45,699 nt of DNA from an uncultured bacterium (GTDB taxonomy: Bacteria > Patescibacteriota > Minisyncoccia > Phycocordibacterales > UBA9973): positions 1-45,699 of the forward strand of contig CAIYVW010000037.1 of NCBI GenBank assembly GCA_903929735.1, read 5' to 3'. The notes below the pieces were generated by a model that saw only the letters and a program-made list of their open reading frames with translations, was not told the DNA's origin and searched no databases. Both the position numbers and the translations under genes were made by a program. Below, one piece after another: positions 10,093-45,699 of the stretch (position 1 is its first letter; each line of letters begins with the position of its first letter).

Positions 10093-10166
10093 GCAGTCGT
10101 AGCTCAATTGGTTAGAGCACCCGCCTGTCACGTGGGAGGTTGAGGGTTCAAATCCCTTCGACTGCG
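10093..10166 (+). tRNA. tRNA-Asp(GTC); integration target
   Basis: GCAGTCG/CGACTGC acceptor, CCCGC-CTGTCAC-GTGGG anticodon arm, TTCAAAT T-loop, G73. Confidence 0.95.
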
Positions 10167-11777
10167 CAGTATTGGACAAAGCACCCCTAAACGGGTGTTT
10201 TGTTCTTTTGTAGCAAAGGTTTTTTCCAGTTCCAACCGATTTATTTCACTTTCTACAGCTTTTCGCTTTTTCTCTATTGGTTCTAGCCAATCGTTTGGTA
10301 AAATAAAGAGTTTTTGGTCTTTTACTATATAGTTCCAACCAAGTGCAGTAAATATACTTTTCTTATCTTCTATTGTAGTTTCAGGGTCTTCAAACTTGAT
10401 TTTTGCTACTTGTGCAAAGTTGAATACTTGTTCGGTGTATTGTAACCAGTTCAATGCTCGGCTTTCAGTTTCATTGATTTTCTGCTTTAAGATTGCAATT
10501 TTTTCAATCAGTTCATTTTTTCTTGAAGCATACTGCTCATCATTTATTAGATCACGCATACGCATTGTTATTAAGTTATCTAGCTCTCTTTGAGATACCT
10601 CAATATCGCCTAATTGTGTTTTATAAATTAGCTCCCTTTCTCGGACTTCATCTGAGTGTTCTTCTGCAAGTATTCTTAATGCCCAATCTCTAAACTTTTC
10701 AGAAATCGTATATTTGTCTATTTCTTCCTTTATCATATCTTCCATATTTTTCAATGGAATAAAAGCTCTTTGGGAACAATTTTCTGTTCCTTTCTTTCGG
10801 TGTGAACAATAATAAAATGTGTAATCTTTTAATTCGTTTTTAGTTTTTATCAATTTAGTTTTTGTACAAGCTGTAACAGAACTTCCACATTCGCCACATA
10901 TCATTGTGCCAGTGTATGTGAATATATGACTCTTAGCTCTAGGTTTTCCATATCTCCCTAATAATTTTTGAACCATATCAAACTCATCCATTGTAATCAT
11001 TGGTTCGTGTTTACCATTTCCAACTTCTCCATTGTAAATAAAAAGACCAGTATAAAATATATTTGTTAAGATATTATACATAGTACTTTTATTTATTTTT
11101 CCACCTCCACGATGCCGTGTCGTTCGTGTTCTCATACCCCAATCATCACTCATTATTTTTAAGAGCTTAGGAATTGTATATTCTCCAGTTAGCATCATAT
11201 TCCACGCTTTCTTAATAAGTTCAAATCGTTCAGGGTCTTTGATTATGTAATTTTCACCACGAACTTCGTGTTTAGTATTTAAGTATCCGAGAGGAGCCAA
11301 TACTGGAGCTAATCCCTTAATAATTTTTTTATCAATTCCACTCTTTACTGCTTTCGCTAAATCTTTACTAAACTGACTAGACATTCCACTCTCTACACTG
11401 ATGATAATTGCATTGTCAGACGGTAAGTATTCTTTTTCCTTGGTCTGTATTGACTGTACTTTTCCGTCAGCAAGTAATTGTTGTAATATTCCACTCTCAA
11501 GAGGATTACGGGAGAGACGATTTAGATGCCAACAAATAATTCCATTTGCTTCACCCTTTTCTATTCTACGGATCATCTCACTAAATGCGGGTCTATTATT
11601 TGGTAGTTTGGCAGACCGACTCTCAGAGAAACTATCAATAACTTCTAAATCATATCTTGTGATAGTTTTTCTATTTTCTTCGTGTTGTCTGTCTATTGAT
11701 TGCACTTGTCTATCTTCTCCTTCAGAAGATTTACGTGCATATTCAAAGTATTTAATTTTTGATGTTTGTTTTGTCAT
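10128..11777 (-). CDS. Large serine recombinase (integrase)
   Basis: YARKSSE catalytic Ser, RPAF, RLSRN, recombinase domain (APLGY, HEPMIT), Zn ribbon CGECG...YYCS, coiled coil; last 13 codons antisense to tRNA-Asp. Confidence 0.95.
   Translation of the reverse strand: MTKQTSKIKYFEYARKSSEGEDRQVQSIDRQHEENRKTITRYDLEVIDSFSESRSAKLPNNRPAFSEMIRRIEKGEANGIICWHLNRLSRNPLESGILQQLLADGKVQSIQTKEKEYLPSDNAIIISVESGMSSQFSKDLAKAVKSGIDKKIIKGLAPVLAPLGYLNTKHEVRGENYIIKDPERFELIKKAWNMMLTGEYTIPKLLKIMSDDWGMRTRTTRHRGGGKINKSTMYNILTNIFYTGLFIYNGEVGNGKHEPMITMDEFDMVQKLLGRYGKPRAKSHIFTYTGTMICGECGSSVTACTKTKLIKTKNELKDYTFYYCSHRKKGTENCSQRAFIPLKNMEDMIKEEIDKYTISEKFRDWALRILAEEHSDEVRERELIYKTQLGDIEVSQRELDNLITMRMRDLINDEQYASRKNELIEKIAILKQKINETESRALNWLQYTEQVFNFAQVAKIKFEDPETTIEDKKSIFTALGWNYIVKDQKLFILPNDWLEPIEKKRKAVESEINRLELEKTFATKEQNTRLGVLCPILRSRRDLNPQPPT
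10178..10210 (+). terminator. Element-supplied terminator-like hairpin behind tRNA-Asp
   Basis: AAAGCACCC-CTAAAC-GGGTGTTTT followed by a T-rich tract. Confidence 0.5.
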
Positions 11778-11780
11778 ATA

Positions 11781-11917
11781 CCATAAAAGGACGGTTCTGG
11801 TTGACCCAATATACTTACCAAGAGGCAGTTTTACTGGCAGAACCGCCCTTTTATGGACAGTAAGACATATAAAATGCCTCTGGCAAAAATCGTATATGGG
11901 TCAACACTTACATTATA
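11781..11917 (-). promoter_or_regulatory. Structured 5' leader of the integrase with a -10 box
   Basis: TATAAT at 11917-11912; stems 11800-11836 / 11858-11905; loop 11838-11856 complementary (18/19 plus G-U) to 11781-11799. Confidence 0.6.
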
Positions 11918-13136
11918 TACCTTTTTCCAAAGAAGTTAAGTTTATAAACTCAAAGTTTTCAAGTGCATTGTTTACGAAAGATATGCAATTTGAGTAAGGC
12001 AATCCTTGTATAAGTTCTGATGCTAATTCAATCTTTTTATTTAATCTTTCTGGGTGATTTGTATCCCATATATCAAAGATTGCTCCTCGTACTTCTTTTG
12101 CTCCGTGATCTTTTATTGCAATAGCCAGACCATAAGAGATAAGAGCTTTATTCAAGGTATGAGATTTCTCATCTAATTTTTGTGCTTCAGCTAGTATGTG
12201 CAAAAGAAGTGTTAATTTGTCAGTGATAGCAAAAAGAGACAGTTGGTTTTCTGGTCTATTGATAATAGTGTGCCAAGAATTGATAACAAGCGACTTCATT
12301 AAATTAGGAGTAAACAAATCCTTAAAAAGAAGTTGTGTCTCATATTCTCTTCCTAGAAGTGGGTTTATATATTTTCTTGCCGTTTGGTTTTTCTTTATAC
12401 GGTATTCGTATCTGAATATCTCTTTATTTTCAAGATTATGAGAAATAATAAATTGTCTTTCATAATCAATATGCTCTTTGTCGGTACGTTTATTTTTTGG
12501 TCTAAGCGAGTCAGAAACTTTGTCATAGATAGACCAATCTGTTGTTCCTGCATATATATTTAGAACTCGTGAACCTTTCTTGTTTTGTTTGTCTGATATA
12601 TCAAATACCTTGCTAATATCTATTTTGCCAAGTTCGTTTATTATTTCCCTCATTTTGATATTTTTGGGAAGTAATATGTTTTTACAAGCGTGTACGGCTA
12701 CAACTTGGGCTTTTGAGATAACTTCTGTTTCTATTGTTATTCCTACACTTTGTAATGCCGACCTAAGAGCAGAGAATACTCTTTGTTGATCTGTATTGCT
12801 TACTTCTTGAACACTATTCCAATAAAGTAATTTTGGAATAGATAGTTCAATTTTAAGAATATGTTGTATGTCTTTCCTGTCTTTTGTTAATGTTTCAAAA
12901 AGTTCAACCCGTGGCAAGTACTCTTCTTGAAACTTGGGTCTTAATACAAATCTTTTAAGATAAGGGTGTCTAGAGGTACGTTCTGTTTGAGACAACTCTT
13001 CATAAGTTCGTCTTGTTATTTCTGGTAAAAACAAAGAAAAGTTTGAAATCTTAAAAGTACGTGGGCTGTATATTTTTATAATAACTGTGTCCATAGTAAT
13101 TTTTATGTTGTCGGTGGATTTCAAGGAACCCTGCAC
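11913..13136 (-). CDS. Putative rolling-circle replication initiator (phage/plasmid gpII/X- or Rep_trans-like); probable start ATG 13094 (MDTV)
   Basis: MDTV start, ELSIPKLL.WNS..EV, IYDK and FRYEYR motifs recalled from this family; sits in the element core. Confidence 0.6.
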   Translation of the reverse strand: MQGSLKSTDNIKITMDTVIIKIYSPRTFKISNFSLFLPEITRRTYEELSQTERTSRHPYLKRFVLRPKFQEEYLPRVELFETLTKDRKDIQHILKIELSIPKLLYWNSVQEVSNTDQQRVFSALRSALQSVGITIETEVISKAQVVAVHACKNILLPKNIKMREIINELGKIDISKVFDISDKQNKKGSRVLNIYAGTTDWSIYDKVSDSLRPKNKRTDKEHIDYERQFIISHNLENKEIFRYEYRIKKNQTARKYINPLLGREYETQLLFKDLFTPNLMKSLVINSWHTIINRPENQLSLFAITDKLTLLLHILAEAQKLDEKSHTLNKALISYGLAIAIKDHGAKEVRGAIFDIWDTNHPERLNKKIELASELIQGLPYSNCISFVNNALENFEFINLTSLEKGI

Positions 13137-13141
13137 AACAT

Positions 13142-13321
13142 TTACTTTTGATTTTTCAAAAGTTCAGTATGCTGTGCATTTTTATTCGGACGATAAAGTA
13201 CAGAAATCAAACGCAAAAGTTTGATGCCTTGTTCATACGCATCTTTCTTGCTGATTTCTTCTCCAAAATGCTCTTTGTAGAGATTTTGAAACTCTATGAC
13301 TTTTTCATCTGAAAGGTTCAT
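13142..13321 (-). CDS. 59-aa small protein not in the ORF track; candidate recombination directionality factor
   Basis: Translated by hand: MNLSDEKVIEFQNLYKEHFGEEISKKDAYEQGIKLLRLISVLYRPNKNAQHTELLKNQK; fills the gap between co-oriented neighbours. Confidence 0.7.
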   Translation of the reverse strand: MNLSDEKVIEFQNLYKEHFGEEISKKDAYEQGIKLLRLISVLYRPNKNAQHTELLKNQK

Positions 13322-13325
13322 AGAG

Positions 13326-13586
13326 CTATCTGCTATACAACTTATTTTTAAGAGCTTTTAAGTGATCGAAGTACGACCTAGCTTTTACTTCTAACTTATC
13401 TGCAAAGTATTTGTTCGCTGTTTCTTCTATTCCTCTTTGCTTTCGGAATACAAAAAGAGCTTTTCTTGGATCGTTTTTCTCGACCGTTAAAAGCTCATAA
13501 TCCGCACACAGAAGTGCGGTACTGCAACCCAAATCATAAGTGGTGAACACAGATGATGGGTCGCCTATAGAAATCTTTTTACTCAT
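13326..13586 (-). CDS. DUF5659-like small protein
   Basis: TYDLGCSTALLC..ELL...KALFVF...KYF...LKALKNKLY pattern; family assignment from memory. Confidence 0.6.
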   Translation of the reverse strand: MSKKISIGDPSSVFTTYDLGCSTALLCADYELLTVEKNDPRKALFVFRKQRGIEETANKYFADKLEVKARSYFDHLKALKNKLYSR

Positions 13587-13712
13587 AGTGATTTTCTATT
13601 TTAATAGTAATATGAGAGTTTCGTGCTCTCATTTACAGGGGACGAAAAATCACAGAAGTAAAAAACCACAACAGAAATATGTTGTGGCCTCTATGCTTTG
13701 CTCTACTTTATA

Positions 13713-15239
13713 TTATTGTGAAAAATCACCGTCTATATCTTCTTCCACAGGTGCTGTCATTTCAGAAAATACTTCTTCAGAGTCAGAATACCTATTTTGT
13801 GGTTTTTCTTTTTTGTCAGCATTGTACCTTATGTTGAACTTTGCTTTATATACACCGCCTATGTCTGTTTCAAATGGGTCTGTTTCGTTTTGAAATATCT
13901 TACGTAAAATGTCCGTGATTTTTTGTTTTTGTTTCTTCTTACTTTCGCGTTCTTTTTTTGTGACAGGAAGCGTCTGACCATTACCCCTAGCTAGTTTTAA
14001 TAGAAAAGCCCAATTTTCATCAGCTTTCCCATTTCTACCATCTTCACACCCCATCCCCTCAAAAGAAGACGGTTTTGTGCTTTTGCTGTCTGATAAAAGT
14101 ATATTGGTTTCATCGAGGAATGTTATTGAAACTTTTACCCATTCCGTTCTAGGAAACTGTTGTAGAGTGACCTTTTTTCCACTGCTTTTTTTAATGATGT
14201 TTTCTTCAACATTCTTTATATTTATATTGATGTCTTTCTCTTGGATGTTATTTTCAAAACGATGGGTATGCTCGTGCTTAATTGTTTGCTCTTTGTCTTC
14301 CCCAAAAATATGATTAAAATCTTCCTTGTATTTTGGTGCTTCCTTTTTGTAAAAGTTATTAGTTCTTTGTATCTGAAGTTTATTTAGTTTCTCTATTTCA
14401 CCAGAGATTGCTTCAAGAAAGAAAGCATTTGCCACATCTGTTTTATGTATTTCTGAATTATTTTCAAATAAATCTTTATCTGCTATTTCTTCTCTTAATT
14501 CGATGATTTGTGGCACAATAAAATCTTCCCAAACACCATCAAAAAACTCAGGACAGATATACAAACTGGTTATTGGTTCAATAAGTGTCTGATATGCCTT
14601 GTTGTTCTTAATTTCCAAAAATGTATCGTCGGAATTAACAATTTTTATTAACTTATTTCTAAGTATTTTGAAATAATCATTTAATTCGTCTATTCCAGAA
14701 GTGGGAAAGTAAATACCCGAACCATAATACGCTACCAGTATTGCTTCATAGTAAGAATAATAAACTTTTACTAAGTATATTTTTTCATTAACCGATAAAT
14801 CGTCTATTTTAGACAGATTGAAGTTTTTTATAAGTTCAGCTTTTGTTTTTAATTTGTCGATACCTGATTGTTGGTTAAAATCAAAACCACTCAAGAATAA
14901 TAATTTTGAACCTATTTCATTTGCTTTTTTAATAAGTTCTTTTTCTGAAGCTGTTATTTCTTTTTCGTGTAAAATTGCGCTGTCCTCAATATATTTAGTT
15001 AGATTTGTTATTATTACACCCACTAGTGCATCCTCTTCAGCTTTCCATATTCCACGTAATCTATTTGCCTTTGATCTACTGGAAAAATCAAAATCATACT
15101 TTGTGTCATAGATGTTTATCTTGAACTCATCTTGAAAGAACTGCTCCATTGTTCGGTCACTAAAATCAAGGACATATCCACCTTGCATCCCAAACAGTTT
15201 TTCCAGTATTGCTTTGTCGGTTCCTTTAATTTGGCTCAT
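13713..15239 (-). CDS. AbiJ N-terminal-domain-like protein fused to an uncharacterised C-terminal domain
   Basis: LEKLFGMQGGYVLDFSDRT...SKANRLRGIW is the AbiJ_NTD3-type signature; no HEPN RxxxxH seen. Confidence 0.65.
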   Translation of the reverse strand: MSQIKGTDKAILEKLFGMQGGYVLDFSDRTMEQFFQDEFKINIYDTKYDFDFSSRSKANRLRGIWKAEEDALVGVIITNLTKYIEDSAILHEKEITASEKELIKKANEIGSKLLFLSGFDFNQQSGIDKLKTKAELIKNFNLSKIDDLSVNEKIYLVKVYYSYYEAILVAYYGSGIYFPTSGIDELNDYFKILRNKLIKIVNSDDTFLEIKNNKAYQTLIEPITSLYICPEFFDGVWEDFIVPQIIELREEIADKDLFENNSEIHKTDVANAFFLEAISGEIEKLNKLQIQRTNNFYKKEAPKYKEDFNHIFGEDKEQTIKHEHTHRFENNIQEKDININIKNVEENIIKKSSGKKVTLQQFPRTEWVKVSITFLDETNILLSDSKSTKPSSFEGMGCEDGRNGKADENWAFLLKLARGNGQTLPVTKKERESKKKQKQKITDILRKIFQNETDPFETDIGGVYKAKFNIRYNADKKEKPQNRYSDSEEVFSEMTAPVEEDIDGDFSQ

Positions 15240-15306
15240 AGTAATTGTAATTTATCCTTAAACAATTTGATTTTACCATATTTTACTATGAAGATTAAGC
15301 ATTTTT

Positions 15307-15454
15307 TGTTATACTGGATGTGCGCATAAGTCAGTTTTCAATCAAGGTTTATTTACCTTGGTTACCAATCGTGTTCAGCATAGGCACTCTATGTGGGATA
15401 CAGGATTGGTAACCTTTTGGCTACTGACTTGTGCGCACCCACTGGAGTGCCTAT
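15307..15454 (+). promoter_or_regulatory. Extended -10 promoter and structured 5' leader of the mod-res operon
   Basis: TGTTATACT 15307-15315; stems 15320-15335 / 15423-15438 and 15360-15370 / 15404-15414; loop 15380-15397 complementary to 15438-15454. Confidence 0.6.
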
Positions 15455-15491
15455 TTTGCGTTTCAGTGGAAGACATCTGTATTAGCGCACT

Positions 15492-17201
15492 ATGTCTCAA
15501 CAAAATAAATTACAATTACACGAAAAAGAGCTTCTTGCTCGTATTTCAGAACTTGAGTTAGAAATTAAAAAACTTAAGGATAGAAAATATGGACTTATTT
15601 GGGAAGATAAACCAGAAGAGGTTGTTTTGCAATGCAAAGCCAATATCCCTATTTTAAGAGAAGTTAAGAATAGAAAAATTGTTTCTGATAATTTAACACC
15701 AAACAATCTTTTGATTGAGGGTGACAATTATCACTCTCTTTCTGTTTTGAACTATACTCACAGGAAAAGTGTTGACCTTGTATATATTGATCCACCTTAT
15801 AACACAGGAGCTAAAAACTGGAGGTACAACAATGATTATGTTGATGGAGATGATGATTGGAGACATAGTAAATGGGTATCTTATATGAATAGAAGATTGC
15901 TCTTAGCAAAGAATGTACTAAAAGACAAAGGTGTTCTTGTCTGTGCTATTGATGAAAACGAACACGCCAATCTTGGATTACTTATACATCAGATTTTTAC
16001 GAATTACACGATTGACTGCGTTACAGTAGTTCATAATCCTAGAGGTGTTCAGGGTAAAAACTTTTCGTATAATCACGAGTATATCTATTTTGCCTATCCA
16101 AATGATGGAGGAAAATATATTCTAGATGCTGAAAGAGAAGAGACACTTGAAAGAAACTTTAGAGTTGACGGTAGTAACTCGCCAAGATCAACCTCAAAGA
16201 CAATGTTTTTCCCAATTATTATAGAAGATAAAAAGATTGTTGGTTTTGGTGATGTTGCTGATGTGAATTATCACCCAAAGCAACAAACTGAACATAGAAA
16301 GAATGGGCAGATTTACGTATGGCCAATAGATATAAACGGTATTGAAAGAAAGTGGTCTTTTTCTAGAAATAGTATAGAAGAAATTAAAGACCAGTTAATT
16401 TTCAAGAACAGAAAAGATAGATACGAAATCTATAGGCAAAAAGATGCTTCCCCCTATAGAACAGTGTGGATCAATTCTAAATATGATGCTAATGAATATG
16501 GCTCAAAATTAGTTAATTCTATTATTGATACAAACTTTCCTTTTCCCAAATCAATTTATAATGTTCTAGAGTGTGTATCAGCTACTGTTGGGAATAATAA
16601 AACTGCAACAGTTTTAGATTTTTTTGCTGGTTCAGGAACTACAGGTCACGCTGTCCTAGAACTGAATAAGCAAGATGGTGGTAATCGTAAGTTTATTCTT
16701 TGTACAAATAATGAAAATAATATATGTGAAGAAGTTACTTATGAACGTATTAAAAGAGTTATAAAAGGATATAAAAATAAGAAAGGTGAAAAAATTGAAG
16801 GTCTTGGTGGTAATTTATCATATTACAAAACCGATTTAGTGAACATAGAAAAAATACACAAGATTTCAGATGAAGAAAAAATTAAGGTTACTTATCAAGC
16901 TGGTGAAATGATAGCAGTAAGAGAAGATACCTTAAATGAAATAGAAAAAAATGAATGGTGGCAGATTTTTGAAGGAAATAATAATATCACTGCTATTTAT
17001 TTCAAAGAAGATAAAGAGAAAATTAAAGAACTGATAAAAAAACTTATTTCTAAATTTGAGAATGATAAAACTTCCGTAACTCTTTATATTTTCGGTTGGG
17101 GTAAAAATGAATACAAAAATGAATATAGTTCAGGCCTAGTTCGTGTCGAGGACATTCCTGAACCTATACTGGAAGTTTATAAAGAAATAAATCGTTTATA
17201 A
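15492..17201 (+). CDS. mod: Type III R-M methyltransferase subunit Mod (beta-class amino-MTase)
   Basis: NLLIEGDN, YIDPPYNTG, HSKWVSYM, FPFPK, LDFFAGSGTTGHAV. Confidence 0.93.
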   Translation: MSQQNKLQLHEKELLARISELELEIKKLKDRKYGLIWEDKPEEVVLQCKANIPILREVKNRKIVSDNLTPNNLLIEGDNYHSLSVLNYTHRKSVDLVYIDPPYNTGAKNWRYNNDYVDGDDDWRHSKWVSYMNRRLLLAKNVLKDKGVLVCAIDENEHANLGLLIHQIFTNYTIDCVTVVHNPRGVQGKNFSYNHEYIYFAYPNDGGKYILDAEREETLERNFRVDGSNSPRSTSKTMFFPIIIEDKKIVGFGDVADVNYHPKQQTEHRKNGQIYVWPIDINGIERKWSFSRNSIEEIKDQLIFKNRKDRYEIYRQKDASPYRTVWINSKYDANEYGSKLVNSIIDTNFPFPKSIYNVLECVSATVGNNKTATVLDFFAGSGTTGHAVLELNKQDGGNRKFILCTNNENNICEEVTYERIKRVIKGYKNKKGEKIEGLGGNLSYYKTDLVNIEKIHKISDEEKIKVTYQAGEMIAVREDTLNEIEKNEWWQIFEGNNNITAIYFKEDKEKIKELIKKLISKFENDKTSVTLYIFGWGKNEYKNEYSSGLVRVEDIPEPILEVYKEINRL

Positions 17202-17204
17202 TTT

Positions 17205-19502
17205 ATGCTTATACTTAAACCATTTCAAGAAACAGCAATATCTCAGCTTAAAGACAAGTTTTTAACTTTATGGAAACTTGGTGATACAAATGTTAATTTA
17301 ACTTTCAAATCTCCAACTGGTTCGGGAAAAACAATAATGATGGCTCAATTCTTGAGAGATATTGTTTCTGACCCACGATTTGCAAGTGCAGATGTCGGTT
17401 TTATTTGGATTACAAACTCTGACTCTCTCGCAATGCAATCAAAAGATAAACTTTTTACGTATTACGGAGGAGCTAGCGAAAATCCACTTATTGATCTGAA
17501 CAATCTACGAGATGGTGTTATTCCTAAGAACGGGGTTTTCTTTATAAACTGGCAGAAACTTGTATCAAAATCAAAAGATAATCGTAAACTTCGCACTGAG
17601 GGTGAGTCAAATACCACCTTTGATATGTATCTAGAAAATACACATATACTTAAACGTGATGTTGTATTGATTATTGATGAAGAGCATATTGCTTCCGATA
17701 CAGTTCTTGCTAGTGATTTAATTAAGAATGTTATTAAGCCAAGAATTATAATTGGTGTTTCAGCTACCCCTCAAACAAAAGGTATTACTGTAGATGTTGA
17801 CCGTAAGGATGTTGTACGAGAGGGTTTAATAAAAGAAAAAATTGTATTTCAAACAGCTGAAGATTTAGAAAATAAAGAATATAAAAATATGGATCAGGAT
17901 GATGTTCTTCTTACTTTAGCTTTTGAGAAAAGAAACGAGCTTGTTGAATACTATAAAAAACTTAAGATTGATATTAACCCACTTGTTTTAATACAACTTC
18001 CAAATGACGATAAAGCAAGAAAAGATACTGCTAATATGACCAAGCAAGATTTGGTTATAAACTTTCTTAAGTCAAAAGGAATACTCACTCACGAAATAGC
18101 CGTCTGGCTTTCAGACGATAAGGTAAATCTTGCAGACGTAGAAGCAAGTAATTCACCAGTATCATTTTTACTTTTCAAACAAGCAGTAGCTACAGGATGG
18201 GATTGTCCACGAGCAAGTATCTTGGTGATGTTCCGTGAGATTAAAAATCCTACATTTGCTATCCAAACATCAGGTCGTATTTTACGTATGCCACTTGGAG
18301 TACATTTTTCAGTACCAGAACTTAATCTCGGTTATTTATACACAAACTATAAACGAAATGAAGTACTTGTTGGTTATGCAAAATCTGCTGACCAAAATAG
18401 ACCAGCAATAAATGGAAGTTACAGGAAAACGGCTGTAGAACCAATTGTTCTTGACTCAGTGTTTATGAGCCGTACTGACTATAACGATTTAGGTGATAGC
18501 TTCCAAGAAACTTTCAAAAAGGTAGCAAATAATTATTTTGGTATTTTAGAAAAAGATACAAAAGCAAATGTTATAAAAAAGTTCAATGATAAAAAACTTT
18601 CTTTAGACAAAAAAGTTACAAATGGCCTTATTGTTGATGTTGAGATTGATGACTATGATAATTTCAAGCAGGAACTTCTTTCTGAGGGAAGTAGTTATGA
18701 GCAAGAAATGTCACAGCATGATTTAGAGAGATTATATAATCTTTTCTGTTTTAATATCATATCTAAACAAATTGATGAGGATAAAAAGTTTGCTCCAGAG
18801 CGTTCTTGGGGTAAATTAAAAACCGCCTTAAATGTGTGGCTTCTTGGTCTCCTTAAAGAACAGCGATTACAAATCTATCACATTATTGTAAATGATTTCT
18901 TAAAAGTGAACAGTGTTTTGAGTAGCGTAATTGGTAAAGCATTATCTACATACAGACCAATTCGTGAGCAAGAAATAAATCATAAATCTCAAAGATCCAA
19001 ACGAACTGAGCAAATTGAAATACCAAGACCATCCCTTTTCTATACTGACCAATATGAAGAAATGAAAGTAAAGAAAAGTGCAATGCAACCATTCTTTATA
19101 GAAAAAGATTATACAGGCAAGAAAAATGAGACAAACTTTATTAAATCATTAGAAGAAAATGATAGTGTTCTCTGGTGGTATAAAAATGGTGATTTGGGTA
19201 GTGAGTTTTTCTCTATTCCATATTATGATCCAACAACCAACAAAGAAAGTTTGTTTTATCCTGACTGGGTTATAAGAAATGAAAAAGGTGTTTACATAAT
19301 AGATACAAAAGGTGGTGATACAGCAAAGGGGGCAAAAGAACGTGCTGAAGCGCTCCAAGCGTGGATAAAAAGCAAGAAAGGTTATTATGGAGGTATCGCT
19401 GTCCAAGATGGCTCAAATGGCTGGAAAATCAACGATAGTGCTAAATACGAGTATACTACTGCTCTTAAGGGATGGAAAGATTTAGAAGATTTTTTGAATT
19501 GA
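17205..19502 (+). CDS. res: Type III R-M restriction subunit Res (SF2 helicase plus PD-(D/E)xK nuclease)
   Basis: SPTGSGKT, DEEH, SATP, GWDCPRA, QTSGRILR, FYPDW...DTKG; starts 4 nt after the mod stop. Confidence 0.92.
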   Translation: MLILKPFQETAISQLKDKFLTLWKLGDTNVNLTFKSPTGSGKTIMMAQFLRDIVSDPRFASADVGFIWITNSDSLAMQSKDKLFTYYGGASENPLIDLNNLRDGVIPKNGVFFINWQKLVSKSKDNRKLRTEGESNTTFDMYLENTHILKRDVVLIIDEEHIASDTVLASDLIKNVIKPRIIIGVSATPQTKGITVDVDRKDVVREGLIKEKIVFQTAEDLENKEYKNMDQDDVLLTLAFEKRNELVEYYKKLKIDINPLVLIQLPNDDKARKDTANMTKQDLVINFLKSKGILTHEIAVWLSDDKVNLADVEASNSPVSFLLFKQAVATGWDCPRASILVMFREIKNPTFAIQTSGRILRMPLGVHFSVPELNLGYLYTNYKRNEVLVGYAKSADQNRPAINGSYRKTAVEPIVLDSVFMSRTDYNDLGDSFQETFKKVANNYFGILEKDTKANVIKKFNDKKLSLDKKVTNGLIVDVEIDDYDNFKQELLSEGSSYEQEMSQHDLERLYNLFCFNIISKQIDEDKKFAPERSWGKLKTALNVWLLGLLKEQRLQIYHIIVNDFLKVNSVLSSVIGKALSTYRPIREQEINHKSQRSKRTEQIEIPRPSLFYTDQYEEMKVKKSAMQPFFIEKDYTGKKNETNFIKSLEENDSVLWWYKNGDLGSEFFSIPYYDPTTNKESLFYPDWVIRNEKGVYIIDTKGGDTAKGAKERAEALQAWIKSKKGYYGGIAVQDGSNGWKINDSAKYEYTTALKGWKDLEDFLN

Positions 19503-19512
19503 TTATAAAGAA

Positions 19513-20538
19513 TTATTTTTTATTCATATATTTTGTTGATATTTCGTTAGTTATCTTTCTTGCATTACCGTGACTTAAAAGTCCTAAGTATGACTGAACT
19601 GTATCTATCTTGCCCTCTTTTAGTTTAATACGTTTCCACATTCTACGTTTAGTTACTGTTCTAATTACACGATGATTTGGAAAATGTACCCATCCAAGAA
19701 AATCAATTCCAGAAACCAGTGTGTTTATAGATACTTTGTTATGGTGAAGTGATAACTTAAGCTGTTCTTTAAGAAAATTAGATATTTGAGGAAGTATGTT
19801 TTTTTCAATCCATTCTTTGTTTTCAGACATAACAATAAAATCGTCTGCGTAACGAATATAGTATTTTATTTTTAGTTTGTGTTTAATAAATTGATCAAAC
19901 TCATTCATATAGATGTTTACAAGCAATTGTGAGGTGAGATTACCAAGAGGTAATCCGACATCTTCTTTGGTTGAATGAAAACTTTTAATTATTTCTGACA
20001 AAAGTGAGGTAACGTCGTCATCTCTAATATATTTTTTAATAATTTCAATAAGGATATTCTGGTCAATGGAAGCAAAAAACTTTCTTATATCACCCTTCAA
20101 AACCCACACTGTCCTTGTATTATTCTTTGATACTTTGTTAGAGAAAGTCCTAAATCTTTGTATCGCCTTATGTGTTCCTTTATTTTTTCTACAAGAATAT
20201 GAGTCAGAAGTAAAAGTCCTATCAAAAAATGGATAGAGTACACGATAGATAGCGTGGTGAAGTAATCTGTCTCGTACTTTTGCTTTATGTATACTTCGTG
20301 GCTTTGGGTCAGAAATGTTGAAGGCGTAATAATCAGAATGCTTATATGTTTTATTTAAGAGTTCATTGTGTAGGTCTATTATATTATCCATTAAGTTTCG
20401 TTCAAAATCTAAAACATCCTTCCTTAATTTTTTGTCTATTGAAAACTCTTTCCAAGCAAATAGAAGATTATTAAGAGAAATGATATGTTTATATGTATGA
20501 ATAAATTGAATACGAATCATATTAAAAATAGTGTTCAA
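19513..20538 (-). CDS. DGR reverse transcriptase (start TTG 20538 or ATG 20520)
   Basis: PKPRSI, RDRLLHHA, SYSCRKNKGTH, GDIRKFF, GLPLGNLTSQ, YIRYADDF, GIDFLG; ~340 aa with no maturase or endonuclease domain; adjacent TR/VR pair. Confidence 0.95.
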   Translation of the reverse strand: MNTIFNMIRIQFIHTYKHIISLNNLLFAWKEFSIDKKLRKDVLDFERNLMDNIIDLHNELLNKTYKHSDYYAFNISDPKPRSIHKAKVRDRLLHHAIYRVLYPFFDRTFTSDSYSCRKNKGTHKAIQRFRTFSNKVSKNNTRTVWVLKGDIRKFFASIDQNILIEIIKKYIRDDDVTSLLSEIIKSFHSTKEDVGLPLGNLTSQLLVNIYMNEFDQFIKHKLKIKYYIRYADDFIVMSENKEWIEKNILPQISNFLKEQLKLSLHHNKVSINTLVSGIDFLGWVHFPNHRVIRTVTKRRMWKRIKLKEGKIDTVQSYLGLLSHGNARKITNEISTKYMNKK

Positions 20539-20901
20539 ACTCCAACACTTTTGCCAGTACTACATAAACTAAAAACTGTGTATCTTCTATGGTATAGCTA
20601 TTATCAGATTTTACCCAAAGAACATCGTTATTCTCTTGGAATAAAAATAGATAGCTTGTTTGTAGAAATAATGGAAGCCATCTCTTTGGCTGGATTTCTT
20701 ACTAAAGGAGAAAAACAACCTTACGTAAGATTATCAATCAGAAAGGTTGATACTTTGAAAATCTTACTGATGATTTTATGGGAGACAAAATCTATTGATA
20801 ATAAAAAGTACATTGCACTTTCTGTCCCCTTAGATGAGGTAGGAAGAATGCTTGGTGGTTGGAATGGACAGCTTACAAAACAAAACTCTCCCATCACATA
20901 G
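20485..20901 (+). CDS. avd: DGR accessory variability determinant Avd (four-helix bundle); start uncertain
   Basis: LPKEHRYSLGIKID...LDEVGRMLGGW motifs; basic protein of ~130 aa lying between RT and TR. Confidence 0.88.
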   Translation: MFICMNKLNTNHIKNSVQTPTLLPVLHKLKTVYLLWYSYYQILPKEHRYSLGIKIDSLFVEIMEAISLAGFLTKGEKQPYVRLSIRKVDTLKILLMILWETKSIDNKKYIALSVPLDEVGRMLGGWNGQLTKQNSPIT

Positions 20902-20910
20902 AAAGGAGAG
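20886..20910 (-). other. Hairpin in the TR 3' spacer, antisense to the avd stop
   Basis: Minus strand CTCTCC...GGAGAG followed by TTTTGTTTT. Confidence 0.5.
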
Positions 20911-20922
20911 AAATGAAAAGAT

Positions 20923-21048
20923 TTGCGAGAACAGCAGACGGGTTATTAGCGTTCCAATCATTCTCAAGCCAATTGTAGTTCCAGTTCCACTTACCATCGT
21001 TCCAGTACAAGTACAGGACGTAACGGTTACCGTTAGAGTTCCGAAGAA
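20923..21048 (-). repeat. DGR template repeat (TR), 126 bp
   Basis: Ungapped match to 21407-21532; rich in AAC/AAT codons; all 19 mismatches fall at minus-strand adenines. Confidence 0.97.
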
Positions 21049-21051
21049 ACA

Positions 21052-21269
21052 TATAGAGTATCATCTATTCCACCACCTCTTGAATACTCTCAAGGTTGTA
21101 TATTACTCGTGATAATAATCACTCAATACTCTATACCAAGTATCTTCATTTTTTTGAAGTTTCTGCATACATCACTCTACTTGAAACCTTAATCTCAAGT
21201 ATTCTGAATGTATGGATACTGGTTTCGGTAGCGGAAAATCGTAATCGTCCGCATATTCACCTACTACCG
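21052..21269 (-). ncRNA. Structured 5' region of the putative DGR template RNA
   Basis: Nested helices, e.g. 21052-61/21126-35 (10 bp), 21166-72/21208-14, 21178-84/21195-201, 21226-31/21264-69; extended -10 TGTTAAACT just upstream. Confidence 0.6.
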
Positions 21270-21294
21270 TATTTAGTTTAACACAAAAAAATAA

Positions 21295-21316
21295 CCCCTG
21301 TATAAAAATACAGGGG
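21295..21316 (-). terminator. Perfect hairpin after the DGR target (terminator and/or homing cruciform)
   Basis: CCCCTGTAT-TTTT-ATACAGGGG followed by TTATTTTTT on the minus strand. Confidence 0.65.
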
Positions 21317-21371
21317 CGGAGGATAAAGTACCTCCAATTTTTTTTCGCGAAATGCACAAAGGACAAAGGGT

Positions 21372-22031
21372 CTAAGAAACCAAAGTTTCAGAAACCAGAG
21401 TGCTACTTGCGAGAACAGCAGACGGGCCATCAGCGAACCAATCACGCCCAAGCCAATAGTAGTTCCAGTCCCACTCACCACCGTCCCAGCACAAGTACAG
21501 GACGTAACGGCGACCGCCAGAGTCCCGAAGAACAGTTCCATCAAAGAAAATAAAAGTTGTATTCCCGTTTGTTTTTTCTTTCCATTTTTCAGGAATGAGG
21601 ATTTGGTTTTCCCAAAGTGTTTTGAAAATACCAGCATCCAAACGAATACGATTTGTTTTTTCTTTGAGACGTTTGAGTTTGTCTTCACCTTTAATGATTT
21701 TCTCTCCTTTTTCCAAGGTTGAGTCAAACATAACCTCAGTTAGGTCAATTTCGGTGAGAGCAATTGCTCTTTCGTCTTGTTCTTCAATAGACCATCCGTC
21801 ACCAATAAAGGTTTTGGGATCAAACAGGATAGAGCGGTCAATGCTGATTACCCTTGGGCTATCAACTATAACTTTTCCACCATTTTTAAGGAATGCAGTA
21901 AATTGTTTACCTGCTTCCGTAGGGTCATCTACAATCTTTTGTAAAATTGTGTGTTCCAAGACATCCCAATTAACATTGGTTGCAAGGATTTGGATAACCG
22001 TGTGAGACTGACCAATAGATGGCTTACTCAT
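21372..22031 (-). CDS. DGR target protein with C-terminal variable region (219 aa from ATG 22031; ORF track start 22061)
   Basis: VR encodes LRDSGGRRYVLYLCWDGGEWDWNYYWLGRDWFADGPSAVLA; SD AAGGAGGT 5 nt before ATG 22031. Confidence 0.92.
   Translation of the reverse strand: MSKPSIGQSHTVIQILATNVNWDVLEHTILQKIVDDPTEAGKQFTAFLKNGGKVIVDSPRVISIDRSILFDPKTFIGDGWSIEEQDERAIALTEIDLTEVMFDSTLEKGEKIIKGEDKLKRLKEKTNRIRLDAGIFKTLWENQILIPEKWKEKTNGNTTFIFFDGTVLRDSGGRRYVLYLCWDGGEWDWNYYWLGRDWFADGPSAVLASSTLVSETLVS
21407..21532 (-). repeat. DGR variable repeat (VR)
   Basis: 107/126 identical to TR; minus-strand changes A>G x14, A>T x3, A>C x2. Confidence 0.97.
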
Positions 22032-22075
22032 AATTACCTCCTTTTTTAATAAGAACAACATCGTTCTTGGTTTAT

Positions 22076-22105
22076 ATTATAGCATAATATAACACATTAT
22101 GTCAA
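22076..22105 (-). promoter_or_regulatory. Consensus sigma70 promoter of the DGR target
   Basis: TTGACA (22105-22100), 18-nt spacer containing TGn, TATAAT (22081-22076). Confidence 0.75.
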
Positions 22106-22206
22106 TATGACTAGTTTTTCTGATTTTTCCTTTAGATTTGGTATATAAATATAACCGTTATGTTCCCTTACCCTAGTTCCCACTTCGTCCACTAAATCGC
22201 GCAAAT

Positions 22207-22230
22207 AAAAAGAGGCTTATGCCTCTTTTT
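22207..22230 (+). terminator. Intrinsic terminator, probably the displaced original tRNA-Asp terminator
   Basis: AAAAAGAGGC-TTAT-GCCTCTTTTT directly after the right GCGCA core. Confidence 0.75.
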
Positions 22231-22311
22231 GCTTATTTGACTTAAAGCTAGATTAATAGTAATTTAAGTTTAAATAAACAGTTCTAGTATTAACTTTAAA
22301 TTCTTTGAAAA

Positions 22312-45183: not shown

Positions 45184-45199
45184 TTAATTAATAATAATG

Positions 45200-45286
45200 C
45201 GGAACCAGCGAGATTCGAACTCGCGAGGGCTTTTACACCCTGCCTCTTTAGCAAAGAGGTACGTTAGACCACTCTGACACGGTTCC
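45200..45286 (-). tRNA. tRNA-Ser(GCT)
   Basis: GGAACCG/TGGTTCC acceptor, CCTCT-TTGCTAA-AGAGG anticodon arm, long variable arm, G73. Confidence 0.93.
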
Positions 45287-45512: not shown

Positions 45513-45599
45513 GGAGGCGTGGATGAGTGGTTTAAATCAACAGTTTACTAAACTGTCGAACCTTTACCGGTTCCGTGAGTTCGAATCTCACCGCCTCCG
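45513..45599 (+). tRNA. tRNA-Ser(ACT), rare A34 anticodon
   Basis: GGAGGCG/CGCCTCC acceptor, ACAGT-TTACTAA-ACTGT anticodon arm, long variable arm, TTCGAAT T-loop, G73. Confidence 0.88.
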
Positions 45600-45699
45600 C
45601 ATAACAAGATTTTTATCGCACAAAAGGTCAAATTCCTTTTGTTTATCAATAGTTTTCAGAGGTTCTAACCGTTTACTAATTGCGTTTACCTCTTTTGAA

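Follow-up and report, generated by a model that had tools for sequence, protein, structure and literature searches.

What is the role of the long interrupted hairpin that lies immediately ahead of an integrase gene in a genome of the Patescibacteriota, and does it act as RNA or as DNA? The locus lies in a stretch of 45,699 nt (contig CAIYVW010000037.1, positions 1 to 45,699, assembly GCA_903929735.1; hereafter the window) from an uncultured bacterium of the lineage Minisyncoccia; Phycocordibacterales; UBA9973, and the gene, here called int, encodes a large serine recombinase (LSR) on the minus strand. An earlier sequence-only reading of this DNA had described a TATAAT located 6 nt before the stem, a complementarity between the loop of the hairpin and the tail of the leader, and a gap of 3 nt between this tail and the ATG, all of which we confirmed at the same positions, and it had offered a cis translational switch, a processed antisense RNA acting in trans or a Rep nicking origin as explanations. 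Here we report that the leader represents an undescribed family of structured, probably cis-regulatory leader RNAs with a nearly invariant core. As for its mode of action, we consider it somewhat probable that it is a two-state 5' leader controlling integrase expression, in which a terminator-like or start-occluding fold alternates with an antiterminator.

In the window, a promoter scan of the minus strand identified, at 11939..11912, a sigma-70-type promoter (TTAACT-16 nt-TATAAT, with 10 of 12 matches), and from the promoter spacing the transcript probably starts at the first base of helix A (G 11905), which forms the base of the hairpin. The apical loop, segment C (11856-11838), is complementary over 19 nt to the 3' tail, segment C' (11799-11781), with 18 Watson-Crick pairs and one mismatch (95%) between arms that are 38 nt apart, and C' stops 3 nt ahead of the ATG (11777-11775) of the 549-aa open reading frame (ORF). 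The single mismatch is a G-U pair on the minus strand only, as the sequence-only reading had noted. We also folded the minus-strand RNA of 11920-11770, which gave -52.8 kcal/mol (z = -5.65), a value as low as which was found in 0 of 200 shuffles, compared with -41.7 kcal/mol (z = -4.05) for the plus strand. The pairing of helix A with its 3' arm (A:A') and the C:C' pairing cross one another. Because 0 nt separate 11800 from 11799 and a stem of at least 30 bp intervenes between the tail and the loop, the complete hairpin and the complete loop-tail helix would be mutually exclusive.

Next, we compared 19 distinct leader sequences from about 10 lineages, duplicates having been removed, all of which come from genomes and metagenomes of the candidate phyla radiation (CPR)/Patescibacteria. 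The leader is a conserved feature, not a chance palindrome. The -10 hexamer lies exactly 6 nt ahead of helix A in all 19 sequences; it reads TATAAT in 16 of them and TATGAT, TACAGT and TACATT in the remaining three, and in several lineages a TG is found one base upstream of it. The first base of helix A is always a purine (19/19), the A'-C' junction measures 0 nt throughout (at most 1 nt in locus L023), and a T-run (at least four T in 8 nt) follows the GC-rich core of C' in every one of the 19 tails. The core of the C:C' helix consists of 11 bp, of which 7 are G-C and one is G-U. Within segment C, a nearly invariant core of 13 nt, GGGCGGTTCTG, is identical in 16 of the 19 sequences, while stems A and B are variable. 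Helix B could not be aligned, each sequence building its own helix there from unrelated sequence (for example, L066, L080, L166, L168 and L022), and the 5'-heavy internal loop below it recurs in the folds of other lineages.

We then counted covariation on a MAFFT alignment of these sequences for helix A (14 pairs) and the loop-tail helix (19 pairs), 617 cells altogether. Paired cells amounted to 90.8% of the 617, compared with 81.4% in shuffles (0 of 500 reached the observed value) and 33-48% when the partners were slid by 1-3 columns; part of the unpaired cells are MAFFT gaps (the A' arm of L013, L014 and L015, and a deletion in L022). Two-sided changes were found in 19 of the 33 pairs, where 9.7 were expected (0/500 shuffles), and they occurred in both helices (helix A, 9 of 14 pairs; loop-tail helix, 10 of 19). 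Two crossing helices, each with covariation, are thus present, as in an H-type pseudoknot. The comparison of homologous leaders, which the sequence-only reading had proposed as a check, therefore revealed covariation, and the crossing pairings are real. It is possible that A:A' and C:C' form together while helix B is unformed, but geometry argues against their coexistence with helix B.

The strand on which the structure forms could also be determined. The hairpin was more stable on the int-sense strand than on its complement in 19/19 sequences, by 1.4-14.5 kcal/mol, and so was the C:C' duplex, again in 19/19, by 3.4-8.5 kcal/mol. Among the mismatch cells, 36 were G-U and 6 were A-C, and most of the A-C cells were attributed to misaligned columns. 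Fold stability and G-U bias support the RNA-level structure on the int-sense (minus) strand that had been suggested from the window.

Table 1. Positions in the window of the leader segments, the neighbouring genes and the integrative element
Feature	Position	Strand	Basis or remark
-35-like hexamer TTAACT	11934..11939	-	Promoter scan, window sequence
-10 hexamer TATAAT	11912..11917	-	Shares bases with the TAA stop of the upstream ORF 11913-13136
Helix A, 5' arm	11892..11905	-	Fold; transcript predicted to start at its first base, G 11905
Asymmetric internal loop between helices A and B	11887..11891	-	5 nt in the 5' strand, 0 nt in the 3' strand
Helix B, 5' arm, inner interrupted stem	11869..11886	-	Fold
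Segment C, apical loop, pairs with the 3' tail	11838..11856	-	Inverted repeat; contains the nearly invariant core GGGCGGTTCTG
Candidate helix F, 5' arm CCAGTA	11832..11837	-	Forced fold; partner is the inner half of A'
Helix B, 3' arm	11815..11834	-	Fold
Helix A, 3' arm (A')	11800..11814	-	Inner half 11811-11806 may pair with F
Segment C', 3' tail complementary to the loop	11781..11799	-	Abuts A' at 0 nt; T-run 11788-11785 inside
LSR (integrase), 549 aa	10128..11777	-	Pfam Resolvase, Recombinase and Zn_ribbon_recom
Upstream 407-aa gene	11913..13136	-	Rep_trans-like rolling-circle initiator by fold
Integrative element (putative)	10164..22203	.	Junctions share GCGCA at 10164-10168 (tRNA-Asp end) and 22199-22203
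tRNA-Asp	10093-10167		tRNA scan; last ~40 nt of int overlap it

The leader is linked to the start of a recombinase gene. A serine recombinase ORF lies downstream in the same orientation in 11 of the 11 examined loci outside the window's subgroup and in the subgroup itself, and the distance from the leader to the next start codon ranges from 3 to about 45 nt. The LSRs of different lineages are only 22-50% identical, which makes them no more similar than the paralogues of the window, from which the RNA is missing. The RNAs of L013 and L014 are close (each about 76% identical to the window leader, in the same part), and their recombinases are 22% identical; because of this pair, the leader RNA behaves, as far as sequence comparison can tell, as a module that accompanies the start of a serine recombinase gene rather than any one protein sequence. 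The genes upstream of the leader differ: an HUH Rep (REP_ORF2-G2P) lies directly upstream in L166 and L167, a DnaD-like gene in L080, tyrosine integrases in L066 and L014, a divergent methyltransferase in L023, and the 407-aa family in the window and L022. In two loci, an ORF of 85 aa was found between the leader and the recombinase (L013 1201-1458 and L015 1203-1460, both on the minus strand). It showed no Pfam or PHROG match, and it could be a directionality factor or a regulator that is co-controlled by the leader.

In the two-state interpretation, the promoter would be followed by a structured 5' leader of about 125 nt that belongs to the LSR mRNA, with transcription predicted from the first base of helix A. 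The first fold (HP1) would be the 5'-terminal hairpin, A:A' plus B:B', with segment C in its apical region and the tail C' free. The second (HP2) would be C:C', possibly lengthened by a CCA-containing segment after C that pairs with the TGG-containing inner half of A'. HP2 would consist of a GC-rich core followed by the T-run and would extend in the window to 3 nt before the AUG, so that it may be read as the OFF state, terminator-like and, in the window's subgroup, also occluding the start site; HP1 may be read as the ON state, that is, as the antiterminator. The leader would in this way gate integrase output from a promoter that looks strong and constitutive. The additional pairing (helix F in Table 1) would, if real, put HP2 in direct competition with helix A. 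In the alignment, 92% of its cells were paired, compared with 27-45% when slid, and one of its pairs showed two-sided changes; helix F is thus compatible with the data as a candidate.

Several results speak for such an arrangement. When C:C' was forced, the fold lay 0-8.2 kcal/mol above the minimum-energy fold in the 19 sequences; it was itself the minimum in five of them and within 1 kcal/mol of it in eight. The leader thus has both a GC-rich stem with a U-run and an alternative, excluding fold of comparable energy, as an attenuator does. Hairpin-plus-T-run terminators also occur in the host, for example at 22207-22232. In addition, contigs from RNA libraries bridge the leader, the T-run and the int coding region (11668-11937 and 11670-11895), although they are weak evidence, being assembled contigs without ends, strand or level (four mapped runs out of five that contained small shares of the region). 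We infer that the folds alternate rather than form a strained pseudoknot, that HP1 is the ON fold and that termination occurs at the T-run. A switch acting in cis, as the sequence-only reading had proposed, is therefore still the best interpretation, but its translational form, in which the 19 nt before the start codon are occluded, does not hold as a general mechanism, because the 3-nt gap between tail and ATG is restricted to the window's own subgroup and the recombinase start of other lineages lies roughly 10-45 nt downstream of the tail, as read from the sequences and ORF starts; in L080, a clear AGGAGG is found about 20 nt past the tail. Given that the T-run follows the GC-rich C:C' core in all lineages, the comparison points at least as much to control of termination.

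There are, however, a number of observations that weigh against two alternating states. HP1 is the first to be transcribed and, in 11 of the 19 sequences, the more stable of the two folds, so that the terminator-like fold would need a trigger. A terminator stem whose arms are at least 38 nt apart is unusual, and a terminator scan does not call HP2, since the loop exceeds the 8-nt limit of the scan. A plain attenuator stem needs no invariant sequence, yet the C/C' core is nearly invariant, and the strict 0-nt A'-C' junction hints at coaxial stacking, that is, at a pseudoknot and not at pure alternation. The covariation of helix F, which would make the competition with helix A direct, is weak, as 38 of 500 shuffles reach its score. 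The strand asymmetry would fit a folded single strand of DNA as well, and the contigs from RNA libraries come from relatives and may be carried-over DNA. Finally, eight of the 19 leader sequences are close to that of the window, so that the cell counts overstate independence.

The nearly invariant 13-nt core suggests a conserved host factor or ligand. We therefore considered the alternative that the leader is a sequence-specific sensor or cofactor RNA for LSRs, whose core and conserved G-U are read by a host factor, a ligand or RNA polymerase. This is a tentative explanation and, as it stands, an unlikely one; if true, the sensor RNA would make integration or excision in CPR mobile elements dependent on host state and would be the first RNA class dedicated to serine integrases.

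A related possibility is that the leader is not a simple on/off device at all but a stand-alone small RNA of about 125 nt that ends at the T-run, with A:A' and C:C' forming a pseudoknot in which the A'-C' strand runs through one stacked helix and the core binds a partner such as the host RNA polymerase, a protein, a ligand or the recombinase. The promoter start exactly at the base of the helix, the T-run after C', the 0-nt A'-C' junction (at most 1 nt in L023), the invariant core amid variable stems A and B, and the movement of the module between unrelated LSRs (L013/L014) would all be expected of such an RNA. However, the contigs from RNA libraries continue through the T-run into int (weak evidence here as well), the next start codon always follows the structure at a distance of 3 to about 45 nt, with both oriented alike, as would be the case for a leader, and the pseudoknot would be sterically impossible once helix B forms. 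In addition, no target in trans was found in the bacterium's own genome: a search for complements of the loop with at most one mismatch gave six matches, two of which were the element itself, and the reversed control also gave six. We thus regard a small RNA as unlikely, and the processed antisense RNA acting in trans of the sequence-only reading is likewise left unsupported, as this genome has no further loop target.

The same strand asymmetry would also be expected of DNA if the leader were a single-strand origin (sso) of a rolling-circle element, that is, an exchangeable cassette in which the displaced strand folds to prime lagging-strand synthesis. The 407-aa protein has a Rep_trans-like fold and an HUH Rep is found directly upstream in L166 and L167; moreover, folding is strand-specific, G-T pairs are tolerated in DNA, and the conserved loop, the variable stems and the independence from recombinase identity are all compatible with an origin. 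This explanation nevertheless leaves the -10 hexamer at a fixed 6 nt, the purine at the first base (19/19) and the T-run unaccounted for, as well as the constant abutment to the LSR start. A Rep can be inferred only in the window, L022, L166 and L167; the neighbour in L080 is DnaD-like, and no Rep was seen within the available flanking DNA of L066, L014 and L023. The ssoA loop motif TAGCGT is absent from the window's element, and the strand bias, although present, is explained equally well by RNA. A single-strand origin therefore appears quite improbable.

We give still less credence to a processing or stability element without any switch, in which the 5' hairpin would protect the int mRNA or RNase III would cut the long duplexes and so set the amount of integrase, as in the sib retroregulation of lambda int. 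It would agree with a hairpin that begins at the predicted +1, with helices of at least 30 bp and with the position between two co-oriented genes, but it would leave the covarying loop-tail helix, the invariant core and the near-equal second fold unexplained. Very improbable, in our estimate, is a double-stranded DNA operator or pseudo-att site at which the integrase or a repressor would bind inverted repeats over the int promoter. The repeats do lie just downstream of the promoter, and A' resembles the inferred attP half-site, GTATTGGAC being found at 10169-10177 and in A' of L013 and L015; however, the G-U bias towards one strand (36 vs 6 A-C) and the better fold on that strand in 19/19 are unexpected for protein sites, three interleaved repeat pairs with arms 38-90 nt apart are unlike LSR sites, and the same core occurs with LSRs that are only 22-50% identical. 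The leader was also rejected as an att site proper, which for an LSR would be an imperfect inverted repeat of 40-50 bp about a crossover dinucleotide, placed at the edge of the element or divided by integration; the inferred boundaries lie at 10164-10168 and 22199-22203, and the leader is internal and intact in integrated copies. Least credible of all are a Rep nick site (a double-strand origin), as in the third proposal of the sequence-only reading, and a guide RNA that directs the recombinase to att sites in the style of a bridge RNA, for although a Rep-like gene immediately precedes the leader in the window, L022, L166 and L167 and an RNA gene upstream of a recombinase recalls the bridge RNAs of IS110, the identical core stands beside Rep_trans-like, HUH-type, DnaD-like and methyltransferase genes and tyrosine integrases, yet always beside an LSR start, and a guide function, which would call for loops that complement the target and the donor DNA and change along with them, is ruled out because the 13-nt core is unchanged across insertion sites (tRNA-Asp in the window, L022, L080 and L059, and a tRNA-Gly abutted by L066), besides which the complements of A and C lie within the RNA itself and not at the ends of the element, the inferred junctions are not complementary to the loop, and the recombinase is a serine enzyme with DNA-binding domains of its own.

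Three further candidate features were rejected. A fold-back pseudoknot, with B lying along A, was discarded because helix A (11-15 bp) and helix B (9 to about 25 bp) vary in length independently of each other across lineages. As for a leader peptide, the two candidate ORFs, one of 5 codons in the loop and one of 10 codons over the start, are confined to the window's subgroup. The -35-like TTGACC in arm A, considered as a promoter on folded single-stranded DNA, occurs in about half of the lineages and has no -10 at a suitable distance.

How widely is the leader distributed? A DNA search against 200 other genomes of the same family gave eight matches, two of which were spurious 18-mers and six real; of these six, three were about 95% identical and occurred in three different genera, and three were about 76% identical. 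The leader precedes each of the six LSR relatives recovered from genome contigs, and close relatives of the integrase lie in sequences labelled Candidatus Saccharibacteria or Paceibacterota. A 15-base loop pattern was found at a minimum of 138 loci in metagenome and viral contigs, with the tail partner in six among the matches listed, and 132 of the 138 listed loci are chance matches of the 15-base pattern. In viral contigs, none of the 18 pattern matches had the tail partner or fitted our covariance model R1, and a protein scan of these contigs gave no relative of the integrase. R1 had no match in 94 of the 132 chance loci; about 40 short loci (L108-L147) were checked by regular expression alone and not with R1. 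When loop, gap and tail were combined into one pattern, it occurred in 6 of 401 genomes of the class, compared with 0 of 401 for the reversed pattern.

The genome from which the window derives (763 kb, 52 contigs) contains a single copy of the leader in an R1 scan. It also contains four further LSR genes, on contigs C25, C47 (two) and C49, which are 34-36% identical to the LSR of the window, and R1 did not find the leader RNA at any of these four paralogous loci. The paralogue on C25 has a different, unrelated long hairpin upstream, which lacks a loop-tail complement, and one of the LSR genes on C47 is preceded by a small ORF that resembles, by eye, an excisionase or a helix-turn-helix protein.

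We also compared the leader with known systems. The Rfam scan that the sequence-only reading had suggested (Rfam 15, gathering score, whole window) gave only eight tRNAs and no family matching the leader; with E-values up to 10, the region 11500-12200 gave three matches of 13-22 bits (E 4-8), far under the gathering scores. In the text returned by a full-text literature search, no paper was found that deals with an RNA element associated with serine recombinase genes or with CPR elements of this type. The closest functional parallel is attenuation: in attenuators of the trp type and in that of Bacillus pyrG, two exclusive hairpins form in the leader, and the pyrG antiterminator is formed by the transcript's own 5' end. 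The two-state leader would likewise have exclusive 5'-leader hairpins, the downstream one with a GC-rich stem and a U-run and the upstream one including the 5' end. Unlike these attenuators, it has no leader peptide or known sensor, its arms are at least 38 nt apart, its core is nearly invariant, A' and C' are separated by 0 nt, and termination is predicted.

RNA also controls integrases and transposases elsewhere, as in the retroregulation of lambda int by sib, the attenuation-coupled excision of Tn916 and CTnDOT, and the IS10 and IS200 leaders that hide the ribosome site. In all of these, as would be the case here, the recombinase of a mobile element is held in check by structure in the mRNA close to its gene. 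The differences are that sib acts downstream of int, that Tn916 and CTnDOT act far upstream through the leader of a resistance gene, and that IS10 and IS200 rely on simple occlusion of the ribosome site; to our knowledge, none of them involves a large serine recombinase or this fold. The single-strand origins ssoA and ssoU have a strand-specific fold of about 100-150 nt with a conserved loop and variable stems, and form an exchangeable cassette. The leader shares with them the strand-specific fold, the conserved loop, the variable stems and, in some lineages, the occurrence in elements with an inferred rolling-circle initiator, but it differs in having a promoter 6 nt upstream, a T-run and an obligatory place before the recombinase start, and in lacking the ssoA loop motif TAGCGT.

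The put RNA of phage HK022 is a cis-acting RNA that binds RNA polymerase just past the promoter. It resembles the leader in being a conserved structured RNA at or near the +1 of a mobile-element transcript, which for the leader is a predicted position. A conserved host partner of this kind could explain the sequence conservation, binding of polymerase to the leader being hypothetical. Finally, the bridge RNA or seekRNA of IS110 is a structured RNA encoded directly upstream of a recombinase gene (PMC11208158, PMC13604230). That arrangement in a mobile element is shared with the leader, whereas the recombinase here is a serine and not a DEDD enzyme, and the loop is constant across insertion sites, with its complement within the RNA.

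The DNA that carries the leader appears to be an integrative element of about 12 kb. Because homology with two genomes of other genera (G065 and G094) spans 10083 to about 22211 and ends after the shared GCGCA, we suggest that a rolling-circle-type element is inserted at the 3' end of tRNA-Asp. At the right end, the alignment stops just past GCGCA, ahead of a terminator hairpin of the host. When we looked for a second copy of the 3' end of tRNA-Asp as a direct repeat, we found nothing beyond chance 8-10-mers. The integrase ORF extends about 40 nt into tRNA-Asp and crosses the inferred crossover at GCGCA (10128-10168; right end 22150-22203), so that the last dozen residues of the integrase would not be the same in the integrated and in the excised circular form; the 3' end of int also overlaps tRNA-Asp in L018-L022. 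When the right and left ends are joined, the inferred attP is an imperfect inverted repeat around the crossover. At the right end of the element, three genomes conserve a promoter-like GGTATATAAATATAAC (22125-22160) that faces outward to the junction; once the element is circular, transcription from it would enter the 3' end of int in antisense.

The upstream 407-aa protein had no Pfam, PHROG or PADLOC match, and a PDB sequence search gave only noise; PHROGs and PADLOC likewise gave nothing for a 508-aa protein. Its family comprises 261 homologues from CPR, all unnamed or annotated as 'hypothetical'. The structural model of the protein (predicted local distance difference test, pLDDT, 87) gave 4cij as the best Foldseek match (E 7.8e-4, prob 0.99), and VIA-align to Rep_trans initiators gave Z-scores of 9.9, 9.5 and 9.3 over 225-236 residues, compared with 6.2 for the next match. 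On the basis of this model, the protein looks like an undescribed initiator family of CPR integrative elements.

The cargo of the element includes a type III restriction-modification pair at 15492-19502 (Mod, 569 aa; Res, 765 aa). A diversity-generating retroelement (DGR) occupies 19513-22061. Its reverse transcriptase is encoded at 19513-20538 on the minus strand (PADLOC RT, 4.3e-55), its template repeat occupies 20923-21048, and its variable repeat (21407-21532) lies at the 3' end of an ORF at 21372-22061 (minus strand). The two copies of the 126-nt repeat differ at 19 positions, all of them at adenines of the copy proximal to the reverse transcriptase. Elsewhere in the window, ARAGORN identified a tRNA-Ser with the anticodon ACT at 45513-45600 (plus strand), whose wobble A is unusual, and a tRNA-Ser(GCT) lies on the opposite strand at 45199-45286.

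Large serine recombinases do much of the work in site-specific genome integration, but the timing of their expression in natural elements is poorly known. The leader described here would be a compact module, consisting of a promoter and a two-state RNA, that has been kept or exchanged across LSRs of 22-50% identity in CPR/Patescibacteria. The analysis also defines the host element as a 12-kb tRNA-Asp island that carries a type III restriction system, a DGR and what looks like a Rep_trans-like initiator of a new family. The CPR/Patescibacteria are mostly unculturable and their regulation is almost unexplored; in these organisms, the covariation of two competing folds gives a directly testable model of integrase control, and the leader may serve as a portable regulatory part.

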